The notes beneath the pieces were generated by a model that saw only the letters and a list, made by a program, of their open reading frames with translations, searched no databases and was not told where the DNA came from. The position numbers and the translations under genes are program-made. 64,000 nt of DNA, from assembly GCA_016213365.1 (NCBI GenBank), contig JACRAP010000023.1:15871-79870 (forward strand), given 5' to 3'. This DNA is from Candidatus Berkelbacteria bacterium (lineage in GTDB: Bacteria > Patescibacteriota > UBA1384 > 2-12-FULL-50-11). This document shows, piece after piece, positions 1,904 through 62,975 of this stretch. The first letter of the stretch is position 1. Each line of letters opens with the position of its first letter.

Positions 1904-2674
1904 CTCCTATTTTCACGTTTTTATAGTTGATTCGCGTACAACTTTCGTTTCCGTTATGTTAACCTGCGCGTGCAAGGACATTACGGAGACTGTCTCAGCC
2001 AGGAAGAGGGAAGGAGGGAAATTGCCGAGAGTAGCAAGCTACTCAAAGTGGCAACTCTCCCTAATCCCAGCCGAGACAGTCCCCATAAAGCTCTATCGTC
2101 ACGTACGTCGCGATAATAGCATATACTTTCTCTGTTGTCAATCGATAATACCCTAATTTTGCATTATTAATAAAATAAGGAGCTCTGGTGGCCATACGGC
2201 AACACACAGAGCTCCCAGGAGCACCGTTACGAGCTTCGGTTAGGGCTAATCGAGTTACCCTGTTCCTTATATGGAACGTATATATCAAGTGCATTGCCGC
2301 AGCGATTTGCCTTGATTTTCTCTTGTAAACGGTGAAACCTCAAAACTCTCGACAAATCGAGAGTAAAGCGTTTGTTAACTTGGCCAATTTTAAGAACCTG
2401 AAGTAGGTCCACCAAGTTTTATATTTTGGACGGCAACGTCGTTGTCGCCTCCAAGCAGCCCACGAAACACGCAAATATTTTTATCCTAAAAGTGCGTTGC
2501 GCGATCGTGAGCTATTTGGAGTTAATGTTAAGGTGGGCCAATTTGGCTGAAAGCTCTTTAGACTTTCCCCTCTCGGCCTGTGTTATGTTTTTAGCATAAC
2601 GTCGGGATAATAGCATATGCTAATCAAAAAGTCAAGGGATTCGAGCATTATTTTAAATATCAATAAATAGTTTG

Positions 2675-2817
2675 CAGGTAAATTTCGTAACAACCGAAGC
2701 CGAAGGCGAGGTTTGTTGAAATTTACACCACACCCCTGTGGGAGCGACGGAGGAGGCTGGGGAGTTGTAGAGGGGTAGGGCGCGGCCTTCGCAACTCTGA
2801 GCACCCTACCCCTCTAC
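2675..2817. repeat. Inverted-repeat copy A (about 143 bp, GC-rich, with an internal 16-bp-stem hairpin), immediately 3' of cysS
   Basis: The sequence caggtaaatttcgtaacaaccgaagcc...ggagttgtagaggggtagggcgcggccttcgcaactctgagcaccctacccctctac is the reverse complement (about 95% identity) of 4528..4669. Confidence 0.85.
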
Positions 2818-4159: not shown

Positions 4160-4202
4160 TACGGAGTAATAGTACTAGAAATAGAACCGAAGTTAAAGTT
4201 GT

Positions 4203-4481
4203 TTACTCGTCGTCGCCGTAGGAGTCGTTGGAGTAACTTTTTAGTTCTTCCTCTTCTTCGTCTGACTGTAATTGTTCTAGCGATAACGGCGATGACATAT
4301 CGTCGCCTGTATTTATTAAATCTGAAAAATCGTCGTTTACTAATTCTTCATCGCCTTCGGCGGCCTTTTCGGGAGAGAATGTCTTCATTGGCAAACCGCA
4401 ATCCGGACAGACTGCGTTTTGGGTTGGAGAGGTATAACCACAATTTTCGCAAACGTAATCTTCTTGTAACTCAGCTTTCAT
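4203..4481 (-). CDS. Small acidic zinc-ribbon protein (CxxC-x11-CxxC N-terminus, Asp/Glu-rich tail), co-directional and upstream of cysS
   Basis: Protein MKAELQEDYVCENCGYTSPTQNAVCPDCG..., 92 aa with a very acidic C-terminus. There is a 43-nt gap to cysS. Confidence 0.5.
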   Translation of the reverse strand: MKAELQEDYVCENCGYTSPTQNAVCPDCGLPMKTFSPEKAAEGDEELVNDDFSDLINTGDDMSSPLSLEQLQSDEEEEELKSYSNDSYGDDE

Positions 4482-4527
4482 ATTATTAGGTTAAAATATC
4501 TGGGATTATTGTCAAGGGATTTATTTC

Positions 4528-4669
4528 GTAGAGGGGTAGGGTGCTCAGAGTTGCGAAGGCCGCGCCCTACCCCTCTACAACTCCCCACCCTGGCCGTCGC
4601 TCCCACAGGGGTGTGGTGTAAATTTCAACAAACCTCGCCTTGGGCTTCGGTTGTTACGAAATTTACCTG
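4528..4669. repeat. Inverted-repeat copy B (about 142 bp), upstream of the zinc-ribbon/cysS unit
   Basis: Reverse complement of 2675..2817. It contains the same internal hairpin gtagaggggtaggg...ccctacccctctac. Confidence 0.85.
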
Positions 4670-4705
4670 ATACTATTAGATAGTCATCTTGAGATAATAC
4701 TTTTA

Positions 4706-5350
4706 TTAGTTATAACTCCTACGTCCTTCGAGGGCTCGTGAGAGCGTTAGTTCGTCTGCGTACTCTAAGTCGCCGCCTACGGGCAATCCACGAGCGATAC
4801 GCGTAACTTTTATGTCCTTTGTAATTTTGCCTGCTTCGATTAATTCTTTTATTCTATCGTCGATATATAGCGCTGTTGCTTCGCCTTCAAGCGATGGGTT
4901 AGTTGCTAGTATCACTTCTTTTACCTCCTCGCCCTTTAAGCGCTCGATTAACTCGTTAATTTTTAAATCTTCCGGAGAGACGTTATTGATCGGTGAAATT
5001 TGTCCGCCTAAAACGTGATACCGTCCGTCAAACCGGGCTTTTTCTAGCGCTAAAACATCGAGCGGCTCTTCCACAACCGCGATCTTACCGACTTGCCGTG
5101 TAGTATCGCTACAAATACCGCACGGATCAGTTTCGGCAACTATTTGGCAAACCGAGCATTTAGTAAGATTTTGTTTTAAGCTAGAAAATGCTAATCCGAA
5201 CTTAGCAAGTTCGTCGTTACTTCTGCTTAGTAAATAAAAAGTTAAGCGGTTAGCAGTTTTCGGTCCAACGCCCGGTAAACTTGCTAGCACTTCAGAGAGC
5301 GCCTCGATTGATTTTGGTAAAACGTTCCTCATTCTTGGGTATAATCGCAC
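4706..5350 (-). CDS. recR: Recombination protein RecR
   Basis: HhH motif region LPGVGPKTANRL, a C4 zinc finger (CSVC...CGIC) and a C-terminal Toprim region. 214 aa. Confidence 0.9.
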   Translation of the reverse strand: MRLYPRMRNVLPKSIEALSEVLASLPGVGPKTANRLTFYLLSRSNDELAKFGLAFSSLKQNLTKCSVCQIVAETDPCGICSDTTRQVGKIAVVEEPLDVLALEKARFDGRYHVLGGQISPINNVSPEDLKINELIERLKGEEVKEVILATNPSLEGEATALYIDDRIKELIEAGKITKDIKVTRIARGLPVGGDLEYADELTLSRALEGRRSYN

Positions 5351-23642: not shown

Positions 23643-24383
23643 TCATTCGTAGAATTGCGTCCACCCTTCCATCGTTCCCTCATTACGAAATGCTTGATTT
23701 AGCTTTTCTTCTAAATCTGGCTTCGACCTATAAAGACTCTTATAAAGATTAGGGTAAAGAGGTTGGAGATAATAATATTGGGGGTATTTCACCTTCATCG
23801 CTTCGTATAACCCCGTCCAGAAAGTAAATACTTTTTTAGCATCATAAAAGCAAATCTCGCTCGGTATCGCGTTAAGCCCCAACTTATGTGTTTTATAGGT
23901 TATCTGATCCACAACCCTCTTCCATGTCTTATCGTTAACTAACGCAAGTATCTGAACATTAATAATTTCCCTGTCATTCGTACGCTCAGTTTCATAGATA
24001 TGTGAGTGAGTGAGGGCGTTTCGCACTACTATTACTTCATCATAATCCTGCTTTAAGGGGTGCGTTCCTCCAATTAGTTTATTGAATTTACTGCCAACCC
24101 TTTCATTTAGTAAGTCGGCAGACCAATTATTATTTTTTATTAACAAATATATAACCCTGTTGAAGTACCCTTCTATACTATTAACTAACAGAATTATTGC
24201 CTCAGCTGCTTGAGTGCTTTCCCCGCAGGATATTGGCTTACCTGCTTTGTGATTTGGGTTCCTCTTTGAATACTCGTATGCCAATAAGTAGTGATTCAGG
24301 GCATCTTCAGCTGTAAAAACTGGGGATATTTCCAAATGATTCATATTATATTTTGCAGGGGCGACAGGAGACGAAAGTCGCAC
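23643..24383 (-). CDS. Hypothetical 246-aa protein bounded by the 77-bp direct repeats; possible HEPN-like (Rx4H) motif
   Basis: GTG start preceded by AGGAG at a 6-nt spacing, both encoded within repeat copy 2. Motif VVRNALTHSH. No integrase or transposase signatures. Confidence 0.5.
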   Translation of the reverse strand: MRLSSPVAPAKYNMNHLEISPVFTAEDALNHYLLAYEYSKRNPNHKAGKPISCGESTQAAEAIILLVNSIEGYFNRVIYLLIKNNNWSADLLNERVGSKFNKLIGGTHPLKQDYDEVIVVRNALTHSHIYETERTNDREIINVQILALVNDKTWKRVVDQITYKTHKLGLNAIPSEICFYDAKKVFTFWTGLYEAMKVKYPQYYYLQPLYPNLYKSLYRSKPDLEEKLNQAFRNEGTMEGWTQFYE

Positions 24384-24722: not shown

Positions 24723-24887
24723 TTACTTACTCTCTTTGTGAGTAGTCTTGGCTTTACAGCGATTGCAAAATTTGTTCAGCTCTAGGCGAACCGTCGTGTT
24801 GGTTTTATTCTTTTCGGAATAATAATTTCTTTCTTTGCAAACAGAGCACTCAAGTGTGATCGGTTCGCGAGTTTTTTTCTTTGCCAT
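24723..24887 (-). CDS. rpmG: 50S ribosomal protein L33 (54 aa); not in the supplied ORF track
   Basis: Manual translation MAKKKTREPITLECSVCKERNYYSEKNKTNTTVRLELNKFCNRCKAKTTHKESK shows the C4 zinc-ribbon L33 pattern. Confidence 0.85.
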   Translation of the reverse strand: MAKKKTREPITLECSVCKERNYYSEKNKTNTTVRLELNKFCNRCKAKTTHKESK

Positions 24888-24931: not shown

Positions 24932-25007
24932 TGGAGCCAGGAACGGGGATTGAACCCGTGACCTCGTCATTACCAATGACGTGCTCTACCAACTGAGCTA
25001 CCCTGGC
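24932..25007 (-). tRNA. tRNA-Thr (anticodon GGT)
   Basis: gccagggtagctcagttggtagagcacgtcattggtaatgacgaggtcacgggttcaatccccgttcctggctcca. Anticodon loop UUGGUAA; CCA encoded. Confidence 0.85.
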
Positions 25008-25011
25008 AATG

Positions 25012-25095
25012 TGCTGGGTGAGGGATTCGAACCCCCGAAGGCACAAGGCCATCGCGTTTACAGCGCGCTACGTTTGACCACTTCGCTAACCCAGC
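25012..25095 (-). tRNA. tRNA-Tyr (anticodon GTA) with a long variable arm
   Basis: gctgggttagcgaagtggtcaaacgtagcgcgctgtaaacgcgatggccttgtgccttcgggggttcgaatccctcacccagca. Anticodon loop CUGUAAA. Confidence 0.85.
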
Positions 25096-25742
25096 ATATT
25101 ATTTATTGCGTATCTTATGTCGTCCATTAGGTTATCCCACAAACGCTTGTCTGCATAGCGTATATGAACTAATCCGTTTTTCATTTTATCATTATGATTA
25201 CTGGTTAGTCCAGATTTAATATATGGTTTTGTAAACTGAGATTTAGGTATATCTAGTAGTTTAGACCAGTAACTAATAATTTTACCAACATCCCTATTTT
25301 CATGCGTGTATAAATAAACCCTTAGCTTCTCTTCATTGATTTGATAAATCTCCCTAAGCATTCTTAAGAAAATAGAAATTACTTGCGGATCTGAATTTGC
25401 TAGGTCTACAACACCGAATGATTTTTTTGAACCTTCACCTAGATATATAAAGAGTCCGGCAATAAATAACTCATTTTGTTTTGTGTTCAGTCTTGTTAAC
25501 TTCGAGTAACTCAATGGTTTTGATAAAAAAGTTAGCTTATTTGAATATACCGTTGTTCTTCTAGGAATTTCTCTCCGTTTAAGGGTTCTATATATTGACC
25601 ATTGAGAAATATTCAAAATATTTGCTATTTGTGGCGCACTCTTTCCCTGTGAATATAAATCACAAATCGATATATCTATATTTTCTTGCATTTGAATAAT
25701 AATACACAAATCAGTATCCACTTGCACTTCAAACCGAGCCAC
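25086..25742 (-). CDS. HTH plus LAGLIDADG-like (homing-endonuclease-like) protein wedged between tRNA-Tyr and tRNA-Thr
   Basis: N-terminal HTH (SAPQIANILNISQWSIYRTLKR) followed by ELFIAGLFIYLGEGSKK, which resembles a LAGLIDADG motif (GLxIxLG-acidic-G). The ORF ends overlap both flanking tRNA genes; alternative start at the MQEN Met (25691). Confidence 0.45.
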   Translation of the reverse strand: MARFEVQVDTDLCIIIQMQENIDISICDLYSQGKSAPQIANILNISQWSIYRTLKRREIPRRTTVYSNKLTFLSKPLSYSKLTRLNTKQNELFIAGLFIYLGEGSKKSFGVVDLANSDPQVISIFLRMLREIYQINEEKLRVYLYTHENRDVGKIISYWSKLLDIPKSQFTKPYIKSGLTSNHNDKMKNGLVHIRYADKRLWDNLMDDIRYAINNMLG

Positions 25743-25808
25743 CTGTCGGATTCGGACCGACGACCTGCTGTTTACAAAACAGCTGCTCTACCGCTGAGCT
25801 AAGGTGGC
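25737..25808 (-). tRNA. tRNA-Thr (anticodon TGT)
   Basis: gccaccttagctcagcggtagagcagctgttttgtaaacagcaggtcgtcggtccgaatccgacaggtggct. Anticodon loop UUUGUAA. Confidence 0.85.
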
Positions 25809-25854
25809 AATAACCATACAATTTTACCAAAACTAGCAACAAATCTCTAGATAA

Positions 25855-58468: not shown

Positions 58469-58730
58469 AAAAACTCAAAATGTTCGAGTGTGTTCCAAAC
58501 TAAAGTTGAAGATACTTCTTCTAGTAGCTGTTTACTCTTTCCTGCCTAGAAATATCGCAATTACATAAACGATGCTATCGAGATTGCTCTCGACAGTTAA
58601 ACAGAAAAGAGAAAGTAATTCATGGACCTATAAGTATCCCTTGGCTCAACGCGTTACCGCGCTTACACCTAGGACCTTTCAACCCGGTAGTCTTCCGGGG
58701 GTCTCATAACGAAGATTAATCTTGGGACCT

Positions 58731-58761
<31 letters not shown>

Positions 58762-59039
58762 AGTTATGATCGTAGCTACTCGACAGTGCCCTTGGCAGGA
58801 CAGCCGATACACCAGCGGATCATCCGCTCCGGTCTTCTCATACTAGGAGCCGCCTCCCTCAATCTTCCGCGCTTACAGCAGATGAGGACCGAACTGTCTC
58901 GCGACGTTCTGAACCCAGCTCGCGTACCCTTTTAATTGGCGAACAGCCAAACCCTTGGGACCTTCTCCAGCCCCAGGATAGGATGAGCCGACATCGAGGT
59001 GCCAAACTGCGCCGTCTCTGTGGACGATTGGGCGCAATC

Positions 59040-59076
<37 letters not shown>

Positions 59077-59236
59077 GCCGGCCGTCTCGTACTGAAACCG
59101 GCTGGATCACTTACGCCTGCTTTCGCACCTGCTCGGCTTGTAGGCCTCACAGTCAAGCTCGCTTTTGGGTATACCCTATCGGTACGATTTCCACCCGTAC
59201 CTAGCGAACCTTTGCACGCCTCCGTTACCTTTTAGG

Positions 59237-60123
59237 CAATTTTGTTAACTTAGTTTGTATTTCATCGAGGGAATTATATGGTTTGACACCAATAAGGTAA
59301 ATTTCTCAATTTGACTGGCGGGAATATAGATCTGGTACCCGTCTAACTGCCTCCGAAGCGTCGTCGTAATTACGAATTGGTTCTTCAACAAATCTTGCAA
59401 ATAACTAACACTTTGAACATCAAATGCTTGAGTATTTAGTATTTTTGCGCGATGTTTAGCTGACTTGGATGACCCATCATCCATAAACCAAACCGCTAAT
59501 GATAATTGCGTGACAAATCGTGAAATTGTTCCTGGAATTATCTTTTTTCCTTCTCGATAGAAGAGCTTTCCATACGGCGACAAAGACTCAAGGCCCAAGG
59601 TATTAAAGTAGTAGTTTCTACTTTGCTTACCATTCCTATGCTTTTCTTTTGCTTTTGGTTTCGTCCTTACAAGATTATGTAGTTCGGAGTAAATCCATTC
59701 CACATACTCTTTGTGAGCGAACGATTGCTCAACTTTCAAACGATATGTTCTGCCGTTATTCTGAGTTTCTAAATGTCCGTCACCCAACATTAGTCCGACA
59801 ATTATTTCTATTTGACGGGGCGTTAGATTAACAGATTTTGAAATATCATGAATTTCTGCGGTATTCATACCTATTTAAGCGTCTTGTACAAAGACAAGAC
59901 TCTGTATGTCGCCATACAGTTCAGACTATATCTTCGCTAGAATTTGTAAATACTATTTTCTAGCGCTCGGCGTGTAGTCGTTGAGGGGTCAATTCATTTC
60001 TGAACGACTTCCCTGCTGATTGTCTCCATAGTCCAACCGATTACTCGTTGGAATTTTAGAGAGGTCCCAGCATATAGCCAAGATGCCCCTTTCTGATCGT
60101 TATTATACTGGTGATCATGGTCA
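59237..60123 (-). mobile_element. Group I-type intron in 23S rRNA domain V (887 nt) carrying a homing endonuclease ORF
   Basis: Conserved exon sequence gactggggcggtcgcct | cctaaaaggtaacggagg is interrupted. The 5' exon ends in U and the intron ends in G. An ORF fills the 3' two-thirds. Confidence 0.6.
59245..59868 (-). CDS. LAGLIDADG homing endonuclease (double-motif) encoded within the 23S intron
   Basis: Motif 1 RQIEIIVGLMLGDGHLE and motif 2 LSLAVWFMDDGSSKS. 207 aa. Confidence 0.85.
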   Translation of the reverse strand: MNTAEIHDISKSVNLTPRQIEIIVGLMLGDGHLETQNNGRTYRLKVEQSFAHKEYVEWIYSELHNLVRTKPKAKEKHRNGKQSRNYYFNTLGLESLSPYGKLFYREGKKIIPGTISRFVTQLSLAVWFMDDGSSKSAKHRAKILNTQAFDVQSVSYLQDLLKNQFVITTTLRRQLDGYQIYIPASQIEKFTLLVSNHIIPSMKYKLS

Positions 60124-61415
60124 AGGCGACCGCCCCAGTCAAACTACCCATCTGACACTGTCTTAGTTGTTTTTGCAACTAGTGAGTCTCAAAACAAACG
60201 AAGGGTGGTATTTCACTGTTGTCCGAAGACTCCCACCTATGCTACACATCATGTGCCCTGAAACAATATCAAACTGTAGTAAAGCTCCACGGGGTCTTTC
60301 CGTCTTGCTGCAAGTAGCCGGCATCTTCACCGGCAGTGTAATTTCACCGAGTCCCTCTTTGAGACAGTTTTCAAGTCGTTATGCCATTCGTGCGGGTCGC
60401 TACTTATGCGACAAGGAATTTCGCTACCATAGAACGGTTATAGTTACCGCTGCCGTTCACTCGGGCTTAAATTCGAGCCTCGTCCCGCACTTTGAACACA
60501 AAGTGCTAAATCCTAAATCCTAAGTTCTAAACCCTAAACAGACAAATCCGTTTTGAGTTTAGTGTTTCGAATTTTGAATTTTCACCTTGTGCGCAAGGTG
60601 CGGGAGTCAGCCCTCCTCGTAACCTACGAGCACTGGGCAGGCATCAGCCCCTATACATCTCGTGAGAGATTTGCAGAGACCTAAGTTTTTGTTAAACAGT
60701 CGCTTGAAAGTCATTTGCTGCGGCCAGCACCGCTGCTCCGCACCAGTAAATCCTAAATAACAAGTACTAAATTCAAAACTTGAATTTAGTGTTTTGTGCT
60801 TAGAATTTGCCAATGCGAAGCATTGGGACTGGCAGTCCATATTCCGAAGTTACGGACGCTTTTTTGCCGAGTTCCTTAAAGAGGGTTCACTCGACCACCT
60901 GAGGCTACTCGCCTCAACTACCTGTGTCGGTTTGCGGTACGGATACTAAACATAGTTGACTTAAGAATTTTCTTGCCAGACTTTGAGGTGCTTTCGAAAT
61001 CCAATAATCTTAGCACCCACGGGTCCGTGTCTTCTTAAGGTAGTTGTTTAGTAGTGACGGAATATTAACCGTCTGAACATCGGGGTATTCCCTTAGATCC
61101 GACTAACCCACAGACGATTGGCGTTGCTGTGGAAACCTTAGATATGCGGTGACCAGGGTTCTCACCTGGTTTTCGTTACTCATGCCAACATTCGCACTTC
61201 GTATCGCTCCACAGTCGCTTACGCTTCTGCTTCACTGCAATACGAACGCTCCTCTACCACTCGCAGATAAATCTGCGAATCCTAAAATTCGGTACCTAGC
61301 TTAAGCCCCGTTGAATTTTCCGCGCAAAAAGGCCTAGAGGATTTCTACGCCGCGAAGGCTTTCGCCGACACATTGTAGAGAATCGTAGGATCGACTAGTG
61401 AGCTGTTACGCTTTC

Positions 61416-61447
<32 letters not shown>

Positions 61448-62033
61448 TAGTTGTCTACGCCTTTCCACTTCGTTTTCCACTTAGCTAGAATTTAGGGACC
61501 TTATTTGTAGGTCTGGGCTCTTTCCCTTTAGACCATGCAGCTTAGCCCGCACAGTCTGACTGTATATCCCAAACGGTGTGTATTCGGAGTTTGATAGGAG
61601 GTGAGAGCTTGCGCCCCCAAACTCCTTTCAGTGCTCTACCCCACACCATGCGGATATACGCTATACCTATATATATTTCGAGGAGAACCAGCTATCTCCG
61701 GGTTCGATTAGTATTTTACCGCTTACCACAAGTCATCCCCCAATTTTGCTACATTGGTGGGTTCGGCCCTCCCTGCTAGGTTTCCCTAGAGTTCAGCCTG
61801 CTCATGGCAAGATCACCCGGTTTCGGGTCTAATCCCTGCTGCTAACAGTCGCGCTATTAACACTCGCTTTCGCTTCGCGTTCGATGCATAACATCTTACA
61901 CTCGCAACAAAGATTAACTCGTTGGCTCATTCTTCAAAAGGCACGCCGTCATCCGCCAATTGGCGGACTCCGACTCCTTGTATGCACATAGTTTCAGGTA
62001 CTATTTCACTCCCATACTCTGGGTACTTTTCAT

Positions 62034-62064
<31 letters not shown>

Positions 62065-62975
62065 TAGATATAGTATTTAGCCTTACGGCACGATCACCGT
62101 ACCTTCCGACTGGATTACACGTGTCCAGCCGTACTCAGGATCAGTATCCAAACGGTAAAGTAGTTTAAAATACGGGACTATCACCCCCTATGGTGGTCTT
62201 TTCCAAGATCCTTCTTCTACTACTTTTTGAACTCGTTCGATTTTACAATCTGATACTGCCCTATAACCCTCGCGCATCTCATGTTGGACGCAAGCAAAAA
62301 CAAATTTTCAAAAGGCTAGATCCATTAATTTTAAAGAATCGCCTGTTACTTACTTACGCCCAAGATGAGACACACGAGTTTGGGCTTTTCCCTATTCGCT
62401 CGCCGCTACTGGGGGAATCGTTACTACTTTCTTTTCCTCCGGCTACTAAGATGTTTCAGTTCGCCGGGTGCCTCTGTCGCTTCGCTTCAAACTCAAAATT
62501 ACAAACTCTAAATCCAAAATCAAAATATCCGTTTTGAGTTTTGAACTTTGAGCTTTGAATTTAAAGTGAAGCGACATAATGTCGGTTCACGACATTGGGT
62601 TTCCCCATTCGGAAATCGCCGGATCAAAGCTTGTTGTCAGCTCCCCGACGCTTATCGCAGACTACTACGTCCTTCATCAGCTATATCTACCAAGACATCC
62701 TCTATGTGCACTTTGGTGAATTACTTACTCTGTCTTTCACGGAAAGTGAATTAGACAGAGTTACTTGACCAACTTTTTCCATTTCTGGGATACAGAAATT
62801 TGAAAGTTGGACTTTTTTGCTAAAAGTTGAAATATCTTCAACTTTAGCTTGGAACCTAGTTGTTAAGATGACGCAAGTTAACAAAAAGCCGCTGTTGGCG
62901 GCCGTAAAGTCAACCAAAAAACAGTTGGCTTTTAACCGGCTCCTCCTTTGGTTTTACTTAACATGTACCTAACAA

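Follow-up and report, generated by a model that had tools for sequence, protein, structure and literature searches.

The DNA analysed here is a stretch of 64,000 nucleotides (nt) from a Candidatus Berkelbacteria genome (contig JACRAP010000023.1), referred to below as the window, and the subject is a free-standing gene in it that fills the spacer between the genes for tRNA-Thr(UGU) and tRNA-Tyr(GUA). Its predicted product combines a helix-turn-helix (HTH) with a LAGLIDADG-like domain and represents a family that occupies the 5' flank of tRNA-Tyr in genomes of Patescibacteria (the Candidate Phyla Radiation, CPR) and Omnitrophota. The features of the locus are listed below; positions are those of the window, aa stands for amino acids and ORF for open reading frame.

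25821..25849, minus strand: promoter-like site TAGAGA-17-TAAAAT, TG-extended, upstream of tRNA-Thr(UGU); a weak match from a consensus scan
25736-25808, minus strand: tRNA-Thr(UGU) (ARAGORN, tgt; Rfam), the upstream boundary of the insertion
25086..25742, minus strand: mechanical ORF from the ORF list, GTG start, 218 aa
25692..25742, minus strand: in-frame extension of the mechanical ORF on its upstream side, as far as GTG 25742; the homologue alignment begins at the ATG
25086..25691, minus strand: coding sequence of the HTH plus LAGLIDADG-like protein, ATG at 25691, TAG at 25086-25088, 201 aa
25521..25691, minus strand: N-terminal helix-turn-helix DNA-binding domain, residues 1-57, four helices
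25428..25466, minus strand: LAGLIDADG-like motif FIAGLFIYLGEGS, holding Glu86-Gly87 with the putative catalytic acid
25092..25484, minus strand: C-terminal LAGLIDADG-like domain, residues 70-200
25011-25095, minus strand: tRNA-Tyr(GUA), intronless (ARAGORN, gta; Rfam)
25052..25068, minus strand: anticodon stem-loop of tRNA-Tyr, GCGCG-CTGTAAA-CGCGA, the presumably cleavage-resistant version of the proposed homing site
24932-25007, minus strand: tRNA-Thr(GGU) (ARAGORN, ggt; Rfam), 3 nt downstream of tRNA-Tyr and ahead of rpmG
24723-24887: rpmG, downstream of tRNA-Thr(GGU) and followed by tRNA-Trp

A first-pass annotation, made from the sequence letters, had described an ORF of 218 aa wedged between the two tRNA genes and overlapping both. 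The ORF (25086..25742, minus strand, from the GTG) is indeed there, with the tRNA genes on either side called by both ARAGORN and Rfam, and the overlap with the 5' end of tRNA-Tyr, estimated at about 10 nt, is exactly 10 nt (25086-25095): the last codons CTG GGT TAG coincide with positions 2-10 of the tRNA, of which the stop codon forms positions 8-10. The overlap with tRNA-Thr(UGU) has to be given up, since it exists only in the longest, GTG-initiated reading, where it amounts to 7 nt, and thus is an artefact of taking the longest ORF. ATG 25691 is taken as the start because both the alignment of homologues and the deposited protein P0001 (201 aa, Candidatus Berkelbacteria, 100% identical to the ATG-25691 product) begin there, which leaves a spacer of 44 nt behind tRNA-Thr(UGU). 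The stretch 25692..25742 is therefore probably an untranslated leader or spacer, and no obvious Shine-Dalgarno sequence was found in the spacer upstream of ATG 25691.

The gene occupies the whole spacer between two complete tRNA genes, and Rfam detects no intron at the locus; it is thus intergenic and lies outside any intron or intein. An integrase-type island inserted at a tRNA gene was considered and rejected, as there are no att-like repeats or flanking direct repeats of tRNA ends around the ORF, no integrase, and a single copy of the gene within the window. The promoter consensus scan gave 7 sites against 4.3 +/- 2.1 expected, and the scans for promoters and terminators returned weak consensus matches for the former and no terminator. 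The promoter-like site upstream of tRNA-Thr(UGU), together with the lack of a terminator, faintly suggests that the gene may be transcribed together with the tRNAs.

The ORF is a real gene and not a chance reading frame, since 115 homologues, each about 200 aa long, occur in CPR and Omnitrophota, with E-values down to 1e-59 for the closest non-identical one, and a profile search at E<=1e-30 retrieved at least 261 cluster representatives (clusters of 50% identity). An alignment of 58 homologues contains ten invariant columns, including Glu86-Gly87, with the consensus AG-x-MLYWAEG, and the motif across the family follows the pattern AG-x-(M/L)LYW(A/G)EG. The single LAGLIDADG-like motif proposed in the first-pass annotation lies at 25428-25466; the HTH proposed with it is weak when the window protein is searched by itself (HTH_7, E=7e-4, N-terminal and below the Pfam cut-off).

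The structure predicted by AlphaFold2 from the family alignment (pLDDT 95.2, pTM 0.85) has four N-terminal helices, followed by a domain that starts at helix 70-86 and continues as an alpha/beta core. This domain has the alpha-beta-beta-alpha-beta-beta-alpha order of the LAGLIDADG core fold, with an extra helix between strands in its second half. Glu86-Gly87 forms the C-terminal end of helix 70-86, which is the position of the LAGLIDADG catalytic acid; the helix thus ends in a conserved acid plus Gly, for which a catalytic role is putative. The refuting outcome named at first pass, that no LAGLIDADG fold would be predicted, did not occur: the fold is predicted and Glu86-Gly87 closes the first helix of the domain, with the caveat that Pfam and the other sequence profiles are silent. 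None of the 58 members matched a Pfam LAGLIDADG model at E<=1, and searches of Pfam, NCBIfam, PHROGs and the Protein Data Bank (PDB; phmmer and profile) for the nuclease domain gave HTH matches only, so that the C-terminal two thirds of the protein are silent in all sequence-method searches. Comparison by hhalign with the LAGLIDADG_2 protein of the 23S intron in the same window gave a non-significant probability of 0.45%, in an alignment that pairs IAGLMLYWAEG with IVGLML--GDG, the first motif of the latter protein. With Foldseek, nothing convincing was found for the predicted model in the PDB, and the viral models of BFVD gave weak matches that include annotated phage LAGLIDADG endonucleases.

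The predicted structure supports the view that the protein is a very divergent single-domain member of the LAGLIDADG fold with an extra N-terminal HTH. The family has not been described before, and Pfam, NCBIfam and PHROGs have no model of its nuclease domain. Free-standing homing endonuclease genes are already known; what is new here, and supported by the results, is a LAGLIDADG-fold family that escapes the profiles and specialises in tRNA genes. LAGLIDADG homing endonucleases cut both DNA strands at specific sites, in an Mg-dependent reaction that leaves 3' overhangs of 4 nt, and their single-motif representatives form homodimers via the LAGLIDADG helices. Since the present protein has one nuclease domain per chain, it presumably acts as a homodimer as well; its nuclease activity, like its mobility, is inferred.

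To see where the family occurs, 185,579 species genomes (one per species) were scanned with a single peptide pattern, and 80 loci were kept. The scan confirmed 113 relatives, which is a lower bound because only one pattern was used; as for the further copies of the ORF that the first-pass annotation had proposed to look for, they occur in other genomes, and the window holds a single one. In 72 of the 80 genomes, tRNA-Tyr(GUA) follows directly downstream on the same strand; it is uninterrupted in 59 and split by an insert in 13. Measured from stop codon to tRNA start, the median distance is -5 nt, and at twelve loci the frame extends 38 nt into the tRNA to end at the TAA of the anticodon loop. 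At six loci the gene is located one spacer further, between tRNA-Tyr and tRNA-Thr(GGU), where it likewise ends at the tRNA; five of these six form one clade of the protein tree. Many members of the family lack an upstream tRNA-Thr.

Eleven distant relatives (L081-L091; 26-38% identity, 209-246 aa) have the same architecture with the core AGCMLYWAEGSK, and keep Glu86-Gly87 as AEG or GEG. They are located on large metagenomic viral contigs of 41-527 kb, most of them among tRNA genes of the same strand, with as many as 23 tRNAs within 5 kb in the case of L083. A tBLASTn search of 50,697 GenBank phage records gave no match for the window protein or a viral relative, so these viral relatives are known from metagenomic contigs only. 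The analogy with the seg genes of phage T4 that had been drawn at first pass therefore holds as a way of life, with distant relatives in viral tRNA arrays, and fails as a statement on the protein family: the Seg enzymes are of the GIY-YIG type, and no GIY-YIG domain was matched in Pfam or NCBIfam.

Whether the gene is a fixed part of its locus can be judged from relatives with the same gene order, which were gathered via the neighbouring TPR protein and via ribosomal protein L33. They share either the upstream genes (M50 peptidase, zinc-finger gene, holB, TPR gene and tRNA-Thr(UGU)) or the rpmG cluster downstream. All nine distinct syntenic relatives of the Berkelbacteria type lack the gene in the Thr-Tyr spacer, so it is not a fixed host gene; the other refuting outcome named at first pass, an ORF conserved in all relatives at this site with a housekeeping annotation, was not observed. 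The comparison of Thr-Tyr spacings, also proposed there, gave ORF-free spacers of 15-132 nt in four relatives and other genes in four. The empty spacers measure 15 nt in L094, where tRNA-Tyr is split by a group I intron, 22 nt in L096, 60 nt in L219 and 132 nt in L095, a complete 768-kb Berkelbacteria genome (CP066697.1). A gene for a PD-(D/E)XK endonuclease of 131-134 aa, unrelated to the window gene, takes up the spacer in L092 (4791-5195; PF11645, E=5e-30), L097 (3753-4154) and L225 (1777-2172), which makes the Thr-Tyr spot look like a landing pad for unrelated nuclease genes. The spacer of L222 (656 nt) holds a CYTH-domain gene of 196 aa (1433-2023) upstream of a tRNA-Tyr with the commonest anticodon stem, and the ninth relative, L223, showed no tRNA-Tyr near rpmG.

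L096, with its empty Thr-Tyr spacer, has an intact and very divergent paralogue (4198-4857, 219 aa, 28% identity) between tRNA-Tyr and tRNA-Thr(GGU). The last 28 codons of this paralogue are translated tRNA-Thr(GGU), and it was missed by the gene caller of the source. A copy with an internal deletion of the LAGLIDADG core lies beside an intron-split tRNA-Tyr in L211 (6171-6662); it reads ...KPQFKINENL up to the deletion join and INQFTKPYV... after it, and looks like a decaying homing endonuclease gene. Presence and absence at the same locus, combined with a patchy distribution, is what one would expect from a selfish nuclease gene at a hot spot, and not from a housekeeping gene or an integrase-borne island. 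As a separate observation, the ORF-free spacer of L095 (3732-3863) contains two decayed extra copies of the tRNA-Thr 3' end (TCCGACAGGTGGCTC), which may be scars of past insertion or repair events.

These data bear on the possibility that the protein is a domesticated DNA-binding protein, that is, a WhiA-like regulator or host factor of the tRNA-Thr/Tyr/Thr-rpmG cluster that uses a LAGLIDADG fold and an HTH without cutting or moving. A separate HTH would fit such a role, as would the largely parallel course of protein-tree clades and host lineages, the intact frames of all copies that are not truncated by contig ends, and a position at one tRNA operon that is conserved across phyla. A regulator of this kind would hardly be absent from all nine syntenic relatives, three of which have an unrelated PD-(D/E)XK nuclease gene in its place, nor be so rare overall, leave a decayed copy as in L211, or have relatives within viral tRNA arrays. 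Moreover, the acid of the motif is invariant, whereas WhiA has lost the catalytic residues. We consider a domesticated regulator improbable, also in view of the avoidance of one anticodon-stem sequence described below, which would not be expected of it.

The nature of the adjoining tRNA-Tyr bears on the possible target. The 13 inserts in tRNA-Tyr measure about 200-280 nt and are located in the anticodon loop, where ARAGORN misses them unless introns are allowed. Nine of the 13 reach the Rfam gathering score for group I introns, those of L023, L030 and L057 remain just below it, and for the insert of L041 Rfam gave nothing at E<=1e-3. The commonest tRNA-Tyr anticodon stem-loop, GCAGA-CTGTAAA-TCTGC (CAGA-CTGTAAA-TCTG at its core), corresponds to GCAGACTGTAAATCTGC. 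The window tRNA-Tyr, with GCGCGCTGTAAACGCGA, differs from it at two base pairs of the stem. None of the 60 uninterrupted tRNA-Tyr genes beside a family member, that of the window included, has the commonest stem-loop, and 11 of the 12 intron-split tRNA-Tyr genes called by ARAGORN beside the gene have it in their exons. Among relatives without the gene, the commonest stem occurs uninterrupted in three of eight distinct tRNA-Tyr genes (L096, L097 and L222), as compared to 0/60 (p=0.001); this background, obtained through rpmG neighbours (17 L33 homologues, 7 loci), consists of eight distinct tRNA-Tyr sequences from Berkelbacteria-type genomes only.

A metagenome scan was also made in which the nuclease gene itself was not selected on. 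It started from the 5' half of one type of tRNA-Tyr (acceptor stem GGGCAGG) with the commonest stem, and yielded 120 loci, of which 105 could be evaluated. The gene stands beside four of seven intron-split tRNA-Tyr genes and beside none of 98 uninterrupted ones (Fisher p=7e-6). This supersedes an earlier comparison, in which introns were found in tRNA-Tyr at 5/62 CPR loci versus 1/95 complete genomes (p=0.036; PMC13011429). An intact copy is present directly upstream in L102, L105 and L217, the core-deleted copy in L211, and short empty spacers precede the intron-split tRNA-Tyr in L119, L189 and L214. All seven intron loci show the order tRNA-Thr(UGU), optional nuclease gene, intron-split tRNA-Tyr, followed by tRNA-Gly in the three loci with enough contig (L189, L211 and L217). 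In at least four clades of the protein tree, intron-bearing tRNA-Tyr genes with the commonest stem contrast with intronless ones that have a changed stem.

In many tRNA-Tyr genes of the Omnitrophota type, a group I intron of 198-276 nt without an ORF interrupts the anticodon. Intron-split tRNA-Tyr genes were noted at the genome loci L046, L049, L052, L059, L060, L067, L075, L076 and L080, and at the metagenome loci L102, L105, L119, L189, L211, L214 and L217. Default tRNA scans miss these split genes, and the upstream ORF is then read through the 5' exon, giving a spurious conserved protein tail (...W-AGTQVAKGGRLSKGSVL...). When introns are allowed, ARAGORN also gives a tRNA-Thr(GGU) in L057 (Liptonbacteria; 2411-2681, minus strand), the anticodon loop of which would be interrupted by 197 nt; Rfam finds no group I intron there, and this case is unconfirmed.

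The close association with introns could also be explained if the protein served as a splicing helper (maturase), or as another RNA-binding factor, for tRNA-Tyr. LAGLIDADG maturases are known, 13 of the 80 genomes have the gene immediately ahead of an intron-split tRNA-Tyr, and the link to the intron in the metagenomic sample is tight. Such a factor would have little to do in the window and in the 59 of 80 genomes where the adjoining tRNA-Tyr is intronless, and similar introns occur without the gene in L094, L119, L189 and L214. The viral relatives adjoin other, intronless tRNAs, and both the HTH and the avoidance of the commonest stem would be left unexplained. A role in splicing thus seems very improbable, clearly more so than a regulatory role.

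A third alternative is a mobile nuclease with a different target, such as the empty Thr-Tyr junction or a nearby site like the T-arm, with the links to intron and stem arising as by-products of ancestry and of the needs of the intron. The downstream boundary of the gene is flush with the 5' end of a tRNA in three settings (tRNA-Tyr, tRNA-Thr(GGU) and viral tRNAs), insertion of the gene would split a site spanning the empty spacers of 15-22 nt in L094 and L096, SegB recognises a T-arm motif (PMC2330249), and the statistics given above ignore phylogeny. The left half of such a junction is not conserved, as many family members lack an upstream tRNA-Thr. A target elsewhere also does not predict that commonest uninterrupted stems beside the gene number 0 out of 60 when 98 such tRNA genes exist without it, or that the contrast in stem and intron returns in at least four separate clades. 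We therefore judge a different target to be unlikely, to about the same degree as a domesticated regulator.

The explanation that accounts best for these observations is that the gene encodes a free-standing homing endonuclease of a divergent LAGLIDADG-fold family, with the anticodon region of tRNA-Tyr as its probable target; we assign it a probability of about 0.68. Several points weigh against it. All claims of activity rest on the predicted fold and one conserved acidic residue. Two of the 80 loci are truncated at contig ends, and all 78 copies that are not so cut have full-length frames, which would also fit selection for a host function. The protein-tree clades largely track the host type of tRNA-Tyr, which points to a long stay in these lineages with largely vertical inheritance, and away from frequent jumps. 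The statistics on intron and stem do not take shared ancestry into account, and the four metagenomic copies associated with an intron are all similar to a single protein. Part of the link between intron and stem is explained by a probable requirement of the intron itself for the commonest exon sequence. Furthermore, some uninterrupted tRNA-Tyr genes beside the gene (for example L008 and L042) are only one base pair away from the commonest stem, and inspection of the stems of uninterrupted tRNA-Tyr genes beside the gene revealed no single diagnostic position.

If the gene encodes a homing endonuclease as proposed, its action can be envisaged as follows. Probably transcribed together with the tRNAs, it would give rise to a protein that dimerises and cleaves the tRNA-Tyr region in genomes without the gene, with the HTH probably adding contacts to neighbouring tRNA sequence. 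The break would be repaired from a gene-bearing copy, in which the conserved flanking tRNA genes serve as homology arms, and the repair would copy the gene and adjacent sequence into the cut genome. Since conserved tRNA genes on either side could act as homology arms, tRNA spacers would be good landing sites even between distant genomes. With co-transcription, the ORF would lose its stop codon to RNase P processing wherever it overlaps the tRNA, and one may speculate that this could keep expression low.

The probable target would be the anticodon stem-loop of tRNA-Tyr in its commonest form, CAGA-CTGTAAA-TCTG, which as double-stranded DNA is a pseudo-palindrome of 15-17 bp, which is the simplest reading of the links with intron and stem. 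Being pseudo-palindromic, such a site would suit a homodimer, and a compensatory change of one stem pair would alter both half-sites at once. If the commonest stem-loop is the site, a genome can keep the gene only if the site is split by an intron or changed. One escape route would be disruption of the site at the anticodon by a group I intron without an ORF, as in many Omnitrophota and some CPR, and the other a changed anticodon stem, of which the window would be a case. With the intron, the nuclease gene would drive intron spread from outside it, 37 nt away, in a form of 'collaborative' or trans homing. Without an intron, the resistant tRNA-Tyr allele of the donor would be co-converted with the gene, which is known as 'intronless homing' and would be the state of the window.

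A wider and more tentative proposal is that the family acts as the engine behind tRNA group I introns that lack a homing endonuclease gene ('HEG-less' introns) in Patescibacteria and Omnitrophota, cutting the commonest stem-loop and thereby driving gene and intron alike. We regard this as possible, and clearly less probable than a homing function as such. If true, the nuclease would exert a hidden selection on the sequence of the tRNA-Tyr anticodon stem in two phyla, and sister lineages would act alike at tRNA-Thr(GGU) and in viral tRNA arrays.

The question is of importance for current views on tRNA introns. A survey published in 2026, on group I introns in the tRNA genes of Patescibacteria, sought endonuclease genes inside introns only and with Pfam only, found one tRNA-Tyr intron (position 35/36) in 95 complete genomes, and concluded that most introns have no endonuclease gene and hence that horizontal transfer is limited (PMC13011429). 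The present family is invisible to such surveys because the profiles lack its nuclease domain and the search stayed inside introns. For tRNA-Tyr, this conclusion would be changed by a nuclease gene that lies 37 nt ahead of the point where the intron inserts and shows a statistical link with it. Collaborative homing, a proposed route of mobile intron formation, has so far been documented in phages, and the present case would, if true, be an example on a bacterial chromosome. A selfish nuclease may shape the anticodon-stem sequence of an essential tRNA, and the natural meganucleases would be extended with a compact HTH-plus-LAGLIDADG architecture that has a defined candidate target.

Two further elements of the window deserve mention. 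The 23S rRNA gene (58611-62726, minus strand) exceeds the Rfam model in length by about 1.2 kb and contains a group I intron core (59902-60151) and a classical LAGLIDADG_2 endonuclease ORF (59245-59868; PF03161, E=1.6e-43). This intron is a mobile element separate from the tRNA-Tyr-adjacent gene, which, as anticipated at first pass, is the second LAGLIDADG element of the window. Directly after tRNA-Trp lies a 246-aa ORF (23643-24383, minus strand) without a Pfam match. In the relatives L095 and L219 there is no gene of comparable size between tRNA-Trp and the PilO-type genes, and on the basis of this gene order the ORF may be another tRNA-adjacent insertion.

Of the known systems, the homing endonucleases of the I-CreI, I-CeuI and I-MsoI type resemble the present family in having one motif per chain and a conserved acid at the end of the first helix, an architecture that implies a homodimer and a pseudo-palindromic target. 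Differences from the I-CreI type include the lack of a detectable sequence relationship to Pfam LAGLIDADG_1, _2 and _3, the extra helix between strands, the added N-terminal HTH, and the free-standing position of the gene, which is not encoded in an intron or intein. The non-significant hhalign alignment further suggests two extra residues as compared to the classical motif. In WhiA (DUF199), a domesticated LAGLIDADG-fold transcription factor that is conserved widely among Gram-positive bacteria, both LAGLIDADG domains are degenerate, the catalytic acids are missing and the HTH is C-terminal. The present protein is not of this type, since it has one domain, an N-terminal HTH, an invariant acid (Glu86) and a patchy distribution.

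SegB of phage T4 is a free-standing endonuclease encoded in the T4 tRNA gene cluster, with a recognition site that includes a conserved tRNA motif (PMC2330249). It is similar in that the gene is located among tRNA genes and is lacking in related genomes, whereas its GIY-YIG fold is unrelated; the present family is chromosomal, in CPR and Omnitrophota, and is tied to one particular tRNA, tRNA-Tyr. I-Ssp6803I, a PD-(D/E)XK endonuclease (Pfam PF11645), is encoded in a tRNA-fMet group I intron (PMC3984707, PMC13011429) and has a fold different from that of the present family. Members of PF11645 fill the Thr-Tyr spacer in L092, L097 and L225, where, unlike I-Ssp6803I itself, they are encoded outside the tRNA.

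A further parallel is provided by collaborative (trans) homing, as described for F-CphI beside the psbA intron of cyanophage S-PM2 and for T4 mobE with the I-TevIII intron (PMC6083498, PMC2790892, PMC3984707). The host gene in the present case is a tRNA instead of a protein-coding gene, and the nuclease family differs. In the window, where tRNA-Tyr is uninterrupted, the required adjacency to an intron is lacking and only the 'intronless homing' half would apply. In 13 of the 80 relatives and at four of the seven metagenomic intron loci, a free-standing nuclease gene stands beside a gene with an ORF-less group I intron, just as in the phage systems, and in both cases the proposed target, for the present family a putative one, is the insertion site of the intron.

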